From NCBI GenBank assembly GCA_965217895.1, contig CBDCJV010000002.1:3456001-3520000 (forward strand): 64,000 nt of DNA, read 5' to 3'. Made by a program: the position numbers. This document shows positions 12,001 through 30,000 of this stretch, piece after piece; position 1 is the first letter of the stretch, and every line of letters begins with the position of its first letter. The DNA is from Waterburya sp. Lineage in GTDB: Bacteria > Cyanobacteriota > Cyanobacteriia > Cyanobacteriales > Xenococcaceae.

Positions 12001-15000
12001 ATATTTCTATTTAATATGCTACTATATATTTTGTGGCAATTTAAGAAGTGTCTTCTGAATTCTCGAAACATTTTGTGGGACTGTAGTTCAGCTGGTTAGA
12101 ATGCCTGCCTGTCACGCAGGAGGTCGCGGGTTCGAGTCCCGTCAGTCCCGTTCGTGCTAAATGCACTCACCTTATAGACTTCCCACCTTAACCTCCTGCG
12201 TAACAAGCAGGCATTTACTCAAAACTTACTCAAAAATGAATATAGCAGTAGGACGAGGACGAGTGCAACGAGTACTTATGTACCCCAATTTATCGAGCGG
12301 TTAGATAAGCACAAAAAAATGACGGGTTGCAAAATATCACAACTCCGTCATTATGTCAAATCTAGTATCTGAAATTTATCCTAACCTCTACTCGCACGAG
12401 AATGAGATTTAAGCTTAATGCACATCCTGTTAGGGAAGTAGTGGATTATTTCTATTTTCCCTTACCTCTATTAGTCTATTTTCGATCGTTTTCTAGCTTA
12501 TCTAGAATCTTATCCACCATCTTTTCTAGATAAATCAACCTTTCTTTTGACTCTTTAAAATCAAGATTATTTGATTTGTTTTCTAAGTGCTTTTTCTCCT
12601 GGTAGTCAAACCATTCTTCTATTATCAAATCTAGTGCCCTTGCATTACCTATTTTTTTGTCTATAGAAACGCCGTTTATTATTGCTCGAGCTTCTTCTGA
12701 CATCATAAATGTTCTAGGCTCAAAATTTTTCATACCCATAAAATTCCTCCAATACGTACAATTTATTTAACTTACTTAAAATCACTCAATCTGCTCTGAT
12801 TTTTTGCTATAAGCGTTGGTTTGACGGTATCTCAAAGCCAAAAAAGTTAGTTAGTTGAGTTAGAACCAAACAATGTACAATAGAGGCTATATAGCCTCTT
12901 CCTCCTTAGTCTCCCAGACATTAGTGTTGATTTCTGACCTTAGATCTGAGATCTCGTCATAAAGCTCAAAAGAGCGCCTCCAAAGAGATGATACTTTTTT
13001 GAGCAATTCCTCGTCATTGAAAGTGCGGTTTTGCTCGGCGTATTTTTGTCTCTGTTCAAACTCCCTCCACTCACGTACGATTACATCTAAAGCTCTACTA
13101 TCGTTGTCCTTTTCTTCAATGGACTTTATTTTTATTGCTTCTATTGTTTCGATATCCAGCGAAAACCCTTTGTGTAGCCTATTTCTTTTTCTCATGAGCC
13201 TCCTTTAGTGTTTGTATATTTCTAGAGCGTTGTACACTTCGTTGTACGTTTTTTACTTACGCCTACGCTTCTTACGCTTTTCCTTCTTAGTGAGTAATTT
13301 TTGAGTATCACCACCAGAATTTAAAAGACGTAGGTACGTTAACAGGTCTTCAAGCTGTTCATCGCTTAAAAGCAACCTAGAACGCTTCTCATAGCGTTTC
13401 TTGATGACAGATATGCAGGCTGTAGTAGACCAGCCTAAAATAGCTACTTCGTCATCTATCGCGTGCTTAAGTTCCCAAAAACTAACTCCGTCTAGTTTTT
13501 CTTTTTGTCTCTCCACTTTGTATAGAGTTGATTACGCTGTGTAAATGATGCAGTTGGCATTCCCAATCTACTACTAGTTTGTGATTTATTCTTTTGTCTC
13601 CTTTGAACAAAAAATAACTATCTATTTTTTTAGCCAGCCTTACAAAATCAGTAAACTCACACATAGCACAGTACATTATGTTTTGTACTTCTAGATTTCG
13701 CCTAATTCCAGCTTCGTCTCCATCTATATATGATTCAATGAAATAGTTGGTATTGTCTATCGCTTGATTCAATGCCAGGACGACAATTTCTAGTTCCTTG
13801 TCCGTAATTCCCATAATCTCCTTATCCTTTAGTCCATTTACCTTTTTGCAATCTCAATCCCAAATCAAGCAAACACTCTTTAGTGTCTCTTGGCTTAGGA
13901 GCTTCAAACAACCAACCTTGCTGTACCCACATATCTACTTGACCGCGTATTTGAGCTGTATAGAGTATCAGTTCCATGTTGGCGTTCAAGGCATTCTTGG
14001 TTTCAGTAGCTACAAAATCTCTAAGCAGACTACTTAACCCCGCGCTCTTTTCGGTTTCCCTTTTAAACCAAAACCAATAATCTCTCATCCTGTTAACTGC
14101 TTCCGTGTCGTCTGACCAGATACCAGTGGCAATCCCACAAGCCATCATGTCAAGGCTAATAGTTCTTTGTTGAGAACCTAGTCCTTTTACTGACTTGCTT
14201 AAAATACGCCTAGCAGTAACAAAAGTACTAGCTACGTCGATGTCCCAAAACTCATCATATAGCTTAGAGAACCCTTTCCAGCTATAAGCAGATATATCCA
14301 GTAACGCACTTTGCCAGTTATCATCGGTTATCCCTAACTCGATCTTACGATTGTCTGAAAGTTCCTCTACGCGACTACAAGGGATTACTATCAGTCGCCT
14401 CCTTAGTTCTTTAAAGCGATCGTCTAGATGCAGAGGTGAGATGCTAGAAAACACTTTAGGACAAAAGCACCTAAACTCTATATTGACTCCTGTTTCTTTA
14501 GACGAGACAACAATCTTATCTGTACTTTTGTCATACCCAAACTTAAACATATTGTACAGCTCTGGACTAGTGGTAAAGGTGTTAGCACTAACGTCATCCC
14601 AGACCATGCAGGTATTTCTTTCGACTGTCTTGTAAGGAGATTGATTTTCTCCTTCTGCTACTGGCACTTCCGCCCAGGCAGTCCTTCTTTCTTCTAAGCT
14701 GTTTCTTATGCCAGCAAAAGTATCACTACTAGAGTTAATAGGAACACCGTGTAGACAACTAGCCAGTTTAGCAAGCGTTGATTTGCCACTTCCCGATTGT
14801 CCGTTGAGGAACAAATAAGGAACAATCTTACACAAAGCAGAAGGGAGCATAAAGTAAGTAGCGATAATATCGTAAAAGTCATGAGGCAGAAATATTGTTT
14901 GCTTGAGGATGTTTAGCAAGTTTCCAGGAAGAGTCAAATTGTCACTATAAATTTCCCTCCAGGTGTCGCTTATGCCGTCCTCAGACACAAACAAGGTTGA

Positions 15001-27000: not shown

Positions 27001-30000
27001 TACAGCCACAGGCATAAGGCTTTCTAGCTGTATTAGGAGTCTTAAACTGCAAGTAGATGTTTTGACCTTTGCGAGTCATACCTACACCTCTAGGCGTTTG
27101 CTTCTGGTATCTACTGAAGTCAGATAATAAAGTCTCGTATCCTATCTCGTCTGTGTAATCCTTACTCATTTCTTACTCACTTTGCTTGCAATGGTTAACG
27201 AGTAAGCGTTTGAGAGAACGCTATTGCGCTGGTTAGTCGGTCTACTGGGAGTTCAAGTCTCCCTACCCCCACTCGACATAAAGTCTTTTGTTGAAAAGGA
27301 TTTAAGACTGTCAGGTTAGATGACATTATTTTGTTAAGACGACAAATAATTAGTGAATGTACATTTGTATCCCCTTAATTTGCTTTTTAAACGAGTTATC
27401 GTAGAATAACAAAAATGAATGGCTTGCTAGTTGCCGCTAACAAGCCAAAGACAATTAAGACCAACCTAAGTTTGTTTTACTTTTTCTTCTTAGGGGTGGC
27501 TTTTGATGGTGTAGAACCAGCAGTTTTTGTTGCATTACTGGAGTTTTTGTTGCCTGACGCTTTTGAAGTTGGTTGAGCAGCTTTTGCTCCAGTCTTTTTC
27601 TGTTTAGTCATATTAGGAAATCTCCTTAAATAATAGGTTAAGGGCGAGTAATCAACCCTCAGCTACCCATTATATCCAACGTCCTAAAAATCTAGTGTAT
27701 TTGCACCCATACCTACCTTTTATCCTTAAAAGCTATAGGCTATAAGCTTTATTACTCTTGGCTCTCAGATTCCACTACTTTTCGCTTAGAGAAACCCCAG
27801 GCAAAGAATATAGCTACTACTGCTACGGTTAACCATTCTGGAATGAAGTAATCTGGTAGCCAAACTTTTAAGAGCAGACGCAAGCCAACAAAACCAACGG
27901 TAATAAAGCCTGCGTCCTCTAGGTAAGTATATTCCTGTAGCCATTTGATAAACAAGCCTGCCAAGAAGCGTAAAATAATGATGCCGATCGTTCCACCAGC
28001 AATAATCAGCCAAGTATCTTCGGTAATGGCGATCGCTGAAGTTACGCTATCTAGAGAGAAAGCTAGGTCAGTAATGGCGATAGTCGGAATTACTTGCCAA
28101 AGAGATTTTAAACCTAAGCTGCGATGTTCATCCGTATTATCTTTATCACTAAAAAAAAAGTAATTAATAACTAGCCACAGGAGATACATTGCCCCTAATA
28201 GCTCAAACTGCCAATATTTAATTACCCAAGTAGCAGCCAAAATCAGGGCAATTCTCAGTACATATGCGCCGACTAGTCCAATATCAAGAGCCTGACGCTG
28301 TTTTTGCGGATCTTGAATGCTTTTAGCGATCGCAGCTAGGGCGATCGCATTATCAGCAGACAAAACAGCCTCTAGCAAAATCAAAACCAGCAGTATTAGA
28401 TAGGTTTCAACCCCAGCATTGGTAAAATAATTAACTATGTTTGACAACATTTACTATATATTTTTAAATTAAAAAACACGCCCTGCCTACCATATAAATT
28501 GCTTGTCACCCCGTGAGCTATCGATCTAAAAATCCGTAGATTTTGTAATTTTCTCCTATTTTTATCCAGTTTTTTCTTAAGTTTCCTTCTTCATTATGTT
28601 GCATCTTGTTAAGTGTAGTTTATTTATTCTCCACTCAACCAAGCGATCGCACTTCTGATCCATTCTTCTACGTTATTATTTTTAAGCAACTGATTATCTT
28701 GACTAAGAGCAGTTAAAACCTGTTCGATTTCCTCATTTGTATAGCCAAGAGCCATAAGAGTCATTTCCAAGTCTTCTTTAATTTCAGGTTTGGGAGCAAA
28801 AACAGCATCGGGTTGCTGTACTTCCACGCCAGATATATTGGAAATTTTGTGCCACTCAGCAAGCTTAGTCTTTAATTCTAAAGCAATTCTTTCGGCGGTC
28901 TTTTTACCTACACCAGGGGTTTTAGTGAGAGTAGGAATATTGCTGGTAACTATTGCCCCGACTAACTCTGCTATTCCCAAAGTGTCAATTAGGGCGATCG
29001 CCAACTGCATCCCAATTCCGCTAACAGCAGTTAATTGACGAAACAAATCTCTCTCTGCTAGCGTTGGAAAACCATAAAGAATCTGTTTATCCTCTTGGAT
29101 CTGTAAATGAGTAAAAACTTGCAGCAATTCATCTTGCTCTATATCTAACTGACGAGCAAAACGAGAATAGATTTGCATTTCATAGCCAATATTATTAACC
29201 TCTAAAATCAAAAAAAGGCGATTTTGAGTATTTTTGGCAATTTCTACTTTTTTACCCTTGAGGTAACTAATCATTAATTTCGTAGTTTAAATAGTTATTT
29301 ATTCTTTTACATTCGTTCCTTCTAGAGTGCGTAACTAACCCAAATACTCTTTTGCCGACGGACAAAGGTGAACCAGTGGGCAGACTTCACACAAAGGTTT
29401 ACGAGCTTTACAAACTGCTCTACCGTGATAGATGGTGCGAATTGAATAATTTTCCCATTCTGACTGAGGTAGCAAAGCCATCAAATCCTTTTCGATCGCA
29501 ATTGGTTTATCAGATTTAGTCAACTGCCAACGGTTACTCAGGCGTTTGACGTGGGTATCTACCGTGATACCTTGAATATTACCAAAAGCATGAGCAGAGA
29601 CGACGTTAGCAGTTTTGCGAGCTACTCCTGGCAATTTTAATAATTGCTCCATCTCACTTGGAACTTTGCCATCAAAGTCAGTAATAATCATTTGACAAGC
29701 ACCCTGGATGTTTTTGGCTTTATGGCGATAAAAGCCCGTTGAACGAATTAACGCTTCTAATCGATCGCGATCGCATCCTGCAATCGCCCTAGCGTCAGGA
29801 AATTCAGCAAATAAAGCAGGAGTAACCTTATTTACTCTTATATCGGTACATTGAGCGGAAAGAATTGTTGCGACTAAAAGCTGTACGGGAGTCTCATAAT
29901 CCAGGCTACAGGTAGCATCAGGATATATTTGGGTTAACAGCGAAAAGATAGATTGCGATCGCTGTTTGAGAGCTTTACTGGGCGATTTACACCTGTTTCT

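Follow-up and report, generated by a model that had tools for sequence, protein, structure and literature searches.

Introduction

To our knowledge, tyrosine integrases choose their targets by protein-DNA contacts together with a 7-bp overlap, and the T-loop was reportedly described by Williams in 2002 as a sublocation of integrase elements at tRNA genes. Integron attC is a folded single-strand site with inverted core-like sequences, used by the tyrosine recombinase IntI, and type V-K CRISPR-associated transposons employ short RNA guides matching tRNA. The attP of heterobivalent tyrosine integrases has arm sites flanking the 7-bp overlap (accessible text of bioRxiv 10.1101/2023.11.06.565760). 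The element analyzed here lies in a 64,000-nt stretch (hereafter the window) of contig C2 of the Waterburya sp. genome and carries an inverted copy of an arm of the tRNA gene at its end.

Like lambda-type elements, it appears to have the arm-binding, core-binding and catalytic organization, with the tRNA restored at attL and a 3' fragment at attR. Unlike them, one family is spread over about 20 tRNAs with little tracking by the protein, the P' arm has a promoter-preceded, target-matched inverted copy, and the repeats extend past the tRNA end. The integrase of phage mv4 is also tRNA-targeting, with tolerant core sites and specificity residing in the 7-bp overlap, whereas no target-matched inverted copy is mentioned in the accessible part of that study (bioRxiv 10.1101/2023.11.06.565760).

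The IS110 bridge RNA provides a second parallel. In the portion of the source available (PMC11208160), the recombinase gene of the circle lies downstream of a sigma-70 promoter in the non-coding end, the non-coding sequence behind this promoter covaries with the target, and the left guide base-pairs, on the left side of the core, with the bottom strand, which is the polarity that we infer here. However, according to the same excerpt, IS110 enzymes are not tyrosine recombinases, and their bridge RNA is required and also guides the donor (PMC11208160), whereas here arm sites and an attP core are retained, relatives lacking the copy work, and the RNA is putative. An IS110-type identity was rejected, as the PHROG match, catalytic residues and fold matches identify the recombinase as a tyrosine integrase.

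In the CTX phage attP(+), as far as the available text goes (PMC4246890), two neighboring inverted core-like sequences on one strand fold into the substrate of a tyrosine recombinase. The CTX and attC folds rebuild a recombination site for host XerCD or IntI, respectively, while the present element encodes its own, presumably arm-binding, integrase and targets a tRNA, and its inverted part extends into sequence matching only the chromosomal target. CTX-type folded single-strand integration with host Xer and a dif target was rejected because of the own integrase and the tRNA target. Cyanobacterial CRISPR-associated transposons home to tRNA genes as well, by means of TnsD, but insert downstream of the tRNA by a DDE transposase (PMC10293859, accessible part). 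This identity was also rejected, since no TnsB, TnsC, TniQ or Cas effector was found among the element ORFs searched (21 against Pfam and PHROGs, 13 against NCBIfam). A literature search, with most subscription papers outside its reach, returned no earlier description of such an att-site feature.

Element ends and attachment sites

Judged by its sequence, the element at window positions 12131-27271 is a lambda-type tyrosine-integrase element recombining at the tRNA T-loop, and the repeat of the tRNA 3' end at attL and attR indicates that the class uses ordinary att sites. The host tRNA-Asp(GUC), reconstituted at attL, was located at 12076-12151 (plus strand; ARAGORN, Rfam RF00005), as reported in an earlier note on this DNA. 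That note had the element begin after the tRNA; it begins inside, at the T-loop (12131-12137, plus strand), the putative 7-bp strand-exchange region. This placement derives from 24 attL/attR pairs in relatives, in which the direct repeat begins 0-9 nt left of the T-loop, with cleavage positions taken from the lambda model. In family junctions the repeats reach up to 39 nt beyond the tRNA end, into host sequence. On the other side, an exact 26-bp direct repeat of the T-arm and 3' end of tRNA-Leu(UAA) (27246-27271, plus strand; 26/26) occurs in both element copies and is, from this match, the true right end; the same attR geometry upstream of the integrase gene was seen in homologues. The previously assigned end, 27489, reflects only the start of contig C2 in the first copy.

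The tRNA is followed by a P' trailer with a small hairpin (12152-12176 and 12154-12166, plus strand), which is tRNA-type-specific across species; the Asp trailers of loci L058 and L080 resemble it. Tandem 11-bp repeats at 12215-12236 (plus strand) are candidate integrase arm-type sites (P'). They had been correctly placed at the tRNA-side end, but are not confined to it: the same motif and period recur in the P-arm (27162-27206, plus strand), where tandem repeats overlie the integrase start codon (27162-27179) and an inverted third copy follows (27200-27206). The motif thus appears to mark arm-type sites at both element ends, with a presumed arm-binding role. The gap between T-loop and motif is 72-76 nt at attL in all 98 cyanobacterial sites scored and 68-71 nt at attR in family members. 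No excisionase was identified in the element.

The two ~15-kb elements of this genome are nearly identical, as had been stated (99.4% over 13,711 aligned columns), and over 17751-27489 differ by only one 4-bp gap. They do not represent two clean insertions of one element: no second tRNA-Asp 3' repeat is present elsewhere in the assembly, the Asp copy is flanked by a Leu-type and not an Asp-type attR, and the depth is uneven (26 for the contig piece over the 5' part of the integrase gene vs 69-79 for pieces of the element body). A direct target repeat occurs at both ends of the Leu copy (26/26), but not of the local Asp copy, which is probably a chimera with a Leu-type right end. Because of this attR, the two local copies cannot serve as proof of docking at different tRNAs.

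Integrase and other genes

The 469-aa tyrosine integrase (25760-27169, minus strand) appears lambda-Int-like (phrog_1, E 7e-8) and has 472 homologues. In an alignment of 25 sequences, catalytic residues R259, K307, R374, H397 and Y406 are invariant and H371 nearly so. The top four fold matches are lambda Int, but with E values of at least 5e-3 and a model pTM of only 0.38; the same low-confidence model shows three strands and a helix at residues 29-78. No integrase domain is confined to the copy-bearing branch.

Other genes include a 397-aa P-loop ATPase (13822-15015, minus strand), likely a replication helicase from its weak AAA and primase-family matches, with Atlas neighbors unnamed or DUF3631 (12% of members); a phage-type lysozyme (17627-18253, minus strand; PF00959, E 6e-52; phrog_7); a conserved 272-aa protein (20392-21210, minus strand) with 108 homologues, a model pLDDT of 84.7, a best structural match of Z 5.7 and no capsid match in the structure search; and a 718-aa Pro-rich, coiled-coil protein (22609-24765, plus strand) with no family match beyond coiled coils, whose C-terminus is conserved among related elements (tblastn). 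Of the ORFs other than the lysozyme, none matched capsid or packaging genes (one candidate was folded).

Inverted copies of tRNA arms

The anticodon arm and variable loop of tRNA-Asp (12100-12125, plus strand) align to an inverted copy, the candidate guide, at 12191-12215 (minus strand), with 23 of 25 positions identical and both mismatches C>T. The 20/20 copy at tRNA-Leu(UAA) (C2:15300-15319) was found as described, and the Pro(CGG) example was recovered in another genome (G064, locus L245). The description as a copy of a single arm holds for the arm itself, but the inverted match is longer, continuing degenerately through the T-arm (12177-12190, minus strand). In the identity profile of 29 loci, the T55 and C56 positions of this pseudo-core are replaced (identity 0.17 and 0.07, vs 0.48-0.83 at other positions). 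When 40 tRNA genes of this genome were scored, the Asp and Leu(UAA) modules reached 19 and 20/22, the mode being 9-11. They are not the only two, as had been thought: decayed modules without an element follow Leu(UAG), Leu(CAA), Arg(UCU), Leu(GAG) and Ser(GGA), with lower scores of 14-16/22.

The inverted copy is real and general, and occurs far beyond chance. Beside the arm sites, about 25 nt copy the arm 5' of the T-arm of the resident tRNA, over 19 tRNA types, although the search pattern that collected the sites did not include the arm copy. At 42 of 57 attL sites of this cyanobacterial family the resident tRNA beats every non-cognate arm, compared with 6/41 other cyanobacterial sites and 0/12 non-cyanobacterial controls in the same strict test; related sites are not independent, and p values therefore overstate the effect. 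The resident tRNA ranked first among 25 types in 28 of 38 family sites, and in 25 of the 26 family sites scoring at least 15/22, a distance of 26-28 nt separates the arm site from the T-arm-proximal end of the copy. The degenerate T-arm part fits its own tRNA best in only 7/54 sites.

The strict test was failed by 15 of the 57 family sites. Locus L012 is a complete element with an intact integrase, lacking both copy and promoter, and at a Val site (L081) the copy fits Thr(GGU) better (scores 55 vs 34.5). In one Arthrospira genome, 12 tRNAs are occupied by relatives that share the P' block but have no copy (0/8 junctions matched); the copy is hence dispensable for docking, contrary to the proposal that docking of one element at several tRNAs depends on it. 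In another genome a single unmatched module recurs at three tRNAs, while none of the matched modules was found at more than one tRNA type.

Target switching and the integrase

As far as sequence comparison goes, the integrase protein does not track the target: among 22 integrase pairs at 75-90% identity, one shares the tRNA 3' end. The integrases at the two Leu(UAA) sites share 60% identity and are not sisters, but the 37-nt trailer beside the tRNA is identical. One 32-nt trailer occurs in two genomes, next to a Leu(UAG) copy in the first and next to a Leu(GAG) copy in the second. These cases support a module that travels independently of both the integrase and the adjacent trailer. The earlier idea of a swappable tRNA-specific module is thereby upheld, given the covariation over 19 types, this mobility, the promoter and the wobble-type mismatches.

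The integrase or an accessory protein might instead bind the arm twice, as the original sequence in attB and as the inverted copy in attP; inverted symmetry about the core is usual for tyrosine recombinases (accessible text of bioRxiv 10.1101/2023.11.06.565760). However, targets change faster than the protein, such a protein would have to read 25 nt of arbitrary sequence over 19 types, and strand-biased mismatches are unexpected for duplex binding, so that we give this explanation hardly any credence.

Mismatch pattern

Mismatches in the copies are one-sided, with C>T 36 vs G>A 6 in 29 loci and 54 vs 16 in 48 loci, which is what G·U pairing of the element coding strand with the tRNA template strand would allow. 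The unpaired anticodon loop is biased as well (12/17 C changed to T, 0/10 G to A). There is no clear enrichment of the second wobble class, with A>G 3 vs T>C 10 in 29 loci, and 11 vs 7 in 48 loci (p 0.16, kinship of sites ignored). The trailer skew is only about 1.4 and equal in both groups of sites. True mismatches number 22/348 in the 12 nt nearest the T-arm and 46/290 further out, a gradient that is exaggerated because the alignment was anchored proximally. The fixed register and the strand bias, together with the selective loss of T55/C56, weaken the alternative of a decayed pseudogene.

Another possibility is a neutral footprint: an older, T-loop-like inverted P' motif would occasionally cause fold-back copying during replication or repair at attL (quasi-palindrome template switch), followed by decay and inheritance with the module. 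T-arm-like inverted stretches at sites without an arm copy (L257, L278, L281, L261), the mixed quality of the copies and the rewriting of junction sequence already seen in the long direct repeats agree with it. Decay should then be strand-symmetric, as in the element body, where 46 polarized changes are symmetric (8 and 8) in a control that is small and outside the promoter region, but ratios of 3:1 to 6:1 were found in the copies; a bias of this kind could still arise if the non-template strand were deaminated more often at the promoter. Moreover, 35 of 41 other cyanobacterial sites of the same geometry have no copy, and one element inserted recently three times without leaving a matching copy. 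We regard this origin as distinctly unlikely.

The bias would equally result from G·T wobble if DNA itself were the selector, the attP coding strand, single-stranded or extruded, folding the core on the pseudo-core and presenting the arm copy to the target. The inverted core-like sequence, which has a mismatch at its center, is located about 40 nt away from the core, and in CTX phage two inverted sites separated by 90 bp make up attP(+) (PMC4246890, available portion). Nevertheless, no rolling-circle initiator was found by family searches of the element ORFs, the fixed spacing of arm sites on either side suggests an intasome on double-stranded DNA, and the link with the promoter is left unexplained; such a mechanism seems to us highly unlikely.

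Promoter and predicted transcript

No promoter-terminator pair had been seen to bracket the arm copy. It does have a promoter in front of it: a sigma-70-type promoter (12239-12268, minus strand; -35 at 12268-12263, -10 at 12244-12239) points across the copy towards the tRNA, and is conserved in 34 of 52 family sites (1.4 expected). It matches 8 of 12 consensus positions locally and is therefore absent from a generic promoter scan. Once the element is excised as a circle, the promoter would be directed at the integrase gene. It is also present at some copy-less sites and may serve only that gene; it was found in 33/45 matched vs 11/49 unmatched sites. A hairpin followed by a T-run (12314-12350, minus strand), read from the sequence, has an 11-nt loop, is absent from the generic scan, and would end the leftward operon of the element before the promoter. 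Long fold-back stems were predicted for all five attL transcripts folded; the folds of these natural junctions differ, and no consistent P-arm/trailer pairing was seen by eye.

Such stems are also expected if the copy acts in cis, the sense copy folding onto antisense RNA running into the essential tRNA gene and neutralizing it or marking it for cleavage. This switch would also signal the integrated vs excised state for integrase expression, with no role in target choice. The strand, the C>T bias and the association with the promoter would be the same under this reading, which also explains docking without a copy. On the other hand, it offers no reason for better conservation near the T-arm or for the T-stem drop, at 11 sites there is a promoter but no match, a terminator would do the same more simply, and orphan modules decay though part of the promoter persists. 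We consider it rather unlikely.

Proposed mechanism

Our preferred reading, put forward tentatively and as a whole somewhat short of probable, is that the copy is a promoter-driven guide restricting a T-loop-promiscuous integrase to its cognate tRNA. It would amount to a nucleic-acid-guided tyrosine integrase, which we can call plausible but not yet probable, where an RNA from the attP arm chooses the tRNA gene, is self-sequestered once integrated, and has been reprogrammed to at least 19 tRNA types. As the att sequences show, the lambda-type integrase recombines attP with the T-loop of a tRNA gene, and, since T-arms are alike in all tRNAs, it is weakly selective and the family moves among many tRNAs, as the comparison of sites shows. 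One branch would have gained a selector in the P' arm, namely a promoter adjoining the arm sites and an RNA from the coding strand of the element that begins with a sense copy of about 25 nt 5' of the T-arm of the target; conservation across sites is the basis for both promoter and copy.

In the excised circle the copy would have no partner in cis and would thus be available for base pairing with the cognate tRNA gene, on its template strand and next to the core, which would favor this gene over others with the same T-loop. Over the T-stem the match weakens, and at T55/C56 it is interrupted, so that the core duplex would stay accessible to the integrase. In the integrated state, the RNA is predicted to continue into antisense tRNA sequence, fold back and hide the guide. 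Retargeting would need only a new module, acquired by recombination of P' modules or by fold-back copying, with the protein unchanged.

Significance

The data show promiscuous T-loop entry with duplication of the 3' end of the target and some host sequence, and bear on how integrases switch tRNA genes without destroying them. Even under the weaker readings, a cis switch or a copying footprint, this is an att-site feature with no earlier description in the literature searched. If a promoter-driven module matches the target and changes along with it under a constant protein, tyrosine integrases would possess a base-pairing selector. If the guide reading is true, target choice would be rewritable by changing about 25 nt, and, as the family provides a small natural library of 19 targets, the selector idea is directly testable by 25-nt swaps.

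Attachment Sites and Ends of the Element

In the window (C2:3456001-3520000), the tRNA-Asp(GUC) gene (12076-12151) is followed by an inverted repeat of its own anticodon arm (12191-12215, 23 of 25 positions identical), which is adjoined by two 11-bp tandem repeats (12215-12236). At the opposite end, 77 nt upstream of the start codon of the integrase, the T-arm and 3' end of tRNA-Leu(UAA) recur in both copies of the element as a direct repeat without mismatch over 26 bp (27246-27271), which constitutes a classical attR. A second occurrence of the tandem motif overlaps that start codon. 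We interpret the tandem repeats as putative arm-type sites, and assign the trailer with the inverted copy to the P' arm of attP. Given the attR repeat and the second tandem motif, the element spans the region from the T-loop (12131) to 27271, and the right end at 27489 in the earlier note (C2:3468152-3483489) has to be moved inwards. Two of that note's observations were reproduced: inverted tRNA-arm copies are present at both junctions (for tRNA-Leu(UAA), 20/20 of the variable arm), and the two elements are near-identical (99.4% over 13,711 aligned columns). Its statement that only two tRNAs possess such a copy is correct for the strong matches, which score 19 and 20 of 22 among 40 tRNA genes, but not for the weaker ones, as five further genes, at 14-16 of 22, are followed by modules in decay that retain one arm repeat or two.

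Rfam returned tRNA as its sole match over 11900-27700, and a generic promoter/terminator scan listed neither the conserved promoter (12239..12268, minus strand; 8/12 consensus matches) nor the hairpin with a T-run (12314..12350, minus strand). Within the P arm lies a short inverted repeat (27218-27228), possibly an accessory-protein site, that recurs with altered sequence in many relatives, and about 90 bp directly after attR (27272-27363) resemble short repeats dispersed in the genomes of several relatives.

Elsewhere on the contig, five orphan P' modules were found next to Leu-UAG (C2:2327497), Leu-CAA (925732), Arg-UCU (3039688), Leu-GAG (3754835) and Ser-GGA (49985), each combining one or two arm repeats with a degraded copy of the arm of its tRNA, and none backed by a full element; they are possible donors for retargeting. 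Some 330 nt downstream of the tRNA-Phe gene, 17 nt of its anticodon arm recur exactly in inverted orientation (C2:4477812-4477828), perhaps as a displaced module. A partial relative of the element (C2:3927664-3933603), with homologs of a 718-aa protein, lysozyme and a 244-aa protein, lacks this integrase family and apparently adjoins a different recombinase-like gene. Fragments of tRNA 3' ends, 35-47 nt long, mark other islands with longer att repeats: Pro-GGG (C2:4270406-4270451), Phe (2549231-2549277), Arg-CCG (1820363-1820407) and Ser-UGA (49634-49668). The last 8 kb (C2:5198099-5206099), with a G+C content of 48-61% against 39%, are probably foreign sequence in the assembly.

Origin of the Copy at tRNA-Asp

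The Asp and Leu pair had been read earlier as one integrase element docking at different tRNAs. Four observations argue that the Asp copy is either a recombinant or an assembly chimera, and it cannot demonstrate this. First, no 3' repeat of tRNA-Asp was found elsewhere in the assembly. Second, all 75 differing columns between the two element copies fall at or before 17750, and from there to the contig start a 4-bp gap is the sole difference. Third, public contigs from a single sample cover 26030-27354 at a depth of 26, compared with 69-79 for the body pieces, although this sample is a metagenome with a second strain and summed contig depth is only a rough guide. Finally, the right flank lies after tRNA-Leu(UAG) in two other genomes (G068, G069); in a third (G017) it lies after an attR of the Leu(UAG) type.

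Covariation of the Copy With the Resident tRNA

A first scan for the T-loop and arm repeats, with the copy left outside the search pattern, yielded 79 loci, of which nine were set aside for lack of a tRNA call, two as duplicates and four as near-identical loci from outside the cyanobacteria. Ungapped comparison over 22 nt placed the resident tRNA at the top of 25 types at 28/38 family sites, 3/21 other cyanobacterial sites and 0/12 control sites. On an enlarged locus set, a gapped test against 72 arms was passed by 42/57 family, 6/41 other cyanobacterial and 0/12 control sites, the passing sites spanning 19 tRNA types. As modules at the same tRNA are related across species, they represent closer to 19 than to 48 independent origins. 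An identical 32-nt trailer accompanies a matching Leu(UAG) copy at one site and a matching Leu(GAG) copy at another. That a protein reads out the site is a highly improbable account of such matching.

At two Nostocales sites (L107 and L109) the copy lies 47-48 nt from the arm site instead of 26-28, and the integrase of L109 (L162) falls in a different clade; a second origin or a transfer of the module may account for this. One Val(UAC) site (L081) combines a Val-type trailer with a copy matching Thr(GGU), and is either an ongoing module swap or a low-coverage assembly chimera.

Marks of Function in the Module

Mismatches between copy and tRNA are strongly biased, C>T exceeding G>A by 36 to 6 in 29 loci and by 54 to 16 in 48 loci, with no clear bias of A>G against T>C. 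The excess is also present in the anticodon loop, which rules out tRNA-like self-folding as its source, and general strand-specific mutation was seen neither in the element body, where 46 polarized changes are symmetric, nor at four-fold sites. The bias fits U·G pairing between the coding strand of the element and the template strand of the tRNA gene, and the same C>T changes would weaken the pairing of a pre-tRNA trailer with the tRNA. That the copy acts as a DNA selector of the target seems improbable to us.

True mismatches number 22/348 in the proximal 12 nt and 46/290 beyond. The copy extends into the T-arm, where T55 and C56 are hardly ever retained (0.17 and 0.07), perhaps a sign that a second core is avoided, or a trace of an older motif. 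A sigma-70-type promoter, predicted from sequence, occurs in 34/52 family sites (1.4 expected) and 9/41 others; its spacer is 17-18 nt, and in most of the 34 family sites it ends 5 nt ahead of the arm repeats. It is present in 33/45 matched versus 11/49 unmatched sites. The att-site module bears several independent marks of a base-pairing function, and we regard some functional base-pairing role as likely.

In the mechanism that we propose, an RNA would be transcribed from the promoter across the copy and would pair in trans with the tRNA target, and this pairing would raise the fidelity of targeting; after integration the RNA would be self-sequestered, as predicted folds suggest, and retargeting would proceed through module exchange. 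The base of this mechanism, namely T-loop att sites, arm-repeat geometry, the target-matched copy, promoter conservation and strand bias, is evident at the sequence level. That the promoter-driven RNA is the target selector can be put forward tentatively, as about an even chance at best; a switch in which the copy folds back in cis is unlikely. No consistent pairing was found for a donor-guiding loop.

Docking Without the Copy

According to the earlier note, it is the copy that lets the element dock at different tRNAs. This does not hold for the family as a whole, since sites in Arthrospira and Hyellaceae without a matching copy show docking at many tRNAs, with restoration of the target 3' ends. 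One Arthrospira genome (G073, loci L300-L312) has at least 12 tRNA types, each followed by a near-identical shared P' block, and the copy was found in 0/8 tRNA junctions scored in Arthrospira. In a Hyellaceae record, Gly(GCC), Ser(UGA) and Ser(GCU) have the T-loop in common and each its own 3' repeat, and all three are found with the same unmatched trailer and the same P arm. Loci L055, L068 and L077, with L134, L145, L146 and L123, join one element end to three tRNAs of like T-loop, with a three-base microhomology at the joint, which looks like recent promiscuous insertion with repair.

The att direct repeats reach 0-39 nt beyond the tRNA end, and 10-39 nt beyond it at L016, L017, L102/L193, L008, L088/L140 and L303/L149. 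Such repeats imply that target-side sequence was duplicated or copied at retargeting, which a simple lambda model does not give; they suggest repair or copying at microhomologies. Polyploidy is known in cyanobacteria. The strict test was failed by 15/57 family sites, and one complete, intact element (L012) has neither copy nor promoter. A neutral footprint is a still less likely reading of the copy than the cis fold-back. At L179, L180, L170, L181 and L118, attR is directly followed by another P' module; these are tandem insertion scars or attP-like junctions.

Integrase Family

The integrase in the window retains the catalytic residues in alignment, and its structure model is closest, weakly, to lambda Int. 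The closest named homologs are from Pleurocapsa, Waterburya and Chondrocystis; 472 homologs were collected, and 24/61 family genomes match. Searching for the pattern of arm repeats and T-loop, we obtained 51 loci from genomes and 41 from metagenomes, some of them chance matches; in genuine ones the integrase starts on the arm repeats, with the tRNA 3' end 68-71 nt off, and about 20 tRNAs are involved. Among 40 distinct integrases with a length of 225 aa or more, only 1 of 22 pairs with 75-90% identity has the tRNA 3' end in common, many of these pairs being partial sequences or from Arthrospira. The Leu(UAA) integrases of the window and of L010 share 60% identity and a quick tree does not place them as sisters, but the 37-nt trailer is the same in both elements.

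The integrase profile (A1) found no relative in 3/5 outside genomes having the attL pattern; therefore, part of the outgroup sites lack a link to this family. Neither an integrase relative nor the attL pattern was found in viral contigs. A basic insert near residues 121-133 was rejected as a feature private to copy-bearing elements, since it occurs in copy-less ones too.

Gene Content and Element Type

The element of about 15 kb encodes a lysozyme, a P-loop ATPase and conserved proteins without assigned function, and shorter versions of 5-7 kb retain both att ends. No capsid was recognized in Atlas, fold and structure comparisons of the 272-aa protein, whose Atlas matches are all below 0.9 and which has no viral fold match at E <= 0.001; its best PDB match (Z 5.7, rmsd 6.1), to 2H phosphoesterases, is within noise. 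The element may be virus-like or a satellite. A 51-bp repeat (88%) occurs twice within it, at 13218-13266 and 24798-24848, near variable gene cassettes. A 149-aa ORF (21448-21897, plus strand), without Pfam or PHROGs matches, contains a DWLSFT stretch of a kind found in rolling-circle initiators, as a lead only. The motif layout of a 174-aa ORF (15989-16513, minus strand), which has no family match, presumably resembles that of PD-(D/E)xK nucleases.

Comparison With Known Systems

The element belongs to the lambda-type tRNA-targeting integrase elements, with an organization as in bioRxiv 10.1101/2023.11.06.565760; Williams 2002 is cited in PMC9897764. It is not an IS110 element, although on the target side it may work like the IS110 bridge RNA (PMC11208160). 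Its inverted pseudo-core recalls CTX attP1/attP2 (PMC4246890), and it is not a CRISPR-associated transposon (PMC10293859). For Arthrospira, PMC4991836 mentions an integrase-bearing repeat of 11 kb and 12 integrases similar to one another, in passages that are silent on att sites; these may belong to the present family. Neither this module nor any RNA-guided tyrosine integrase was found described in a literature search covering few subscription papers and no supplements. The att-site module is real and widespread, and apparently undescribed.
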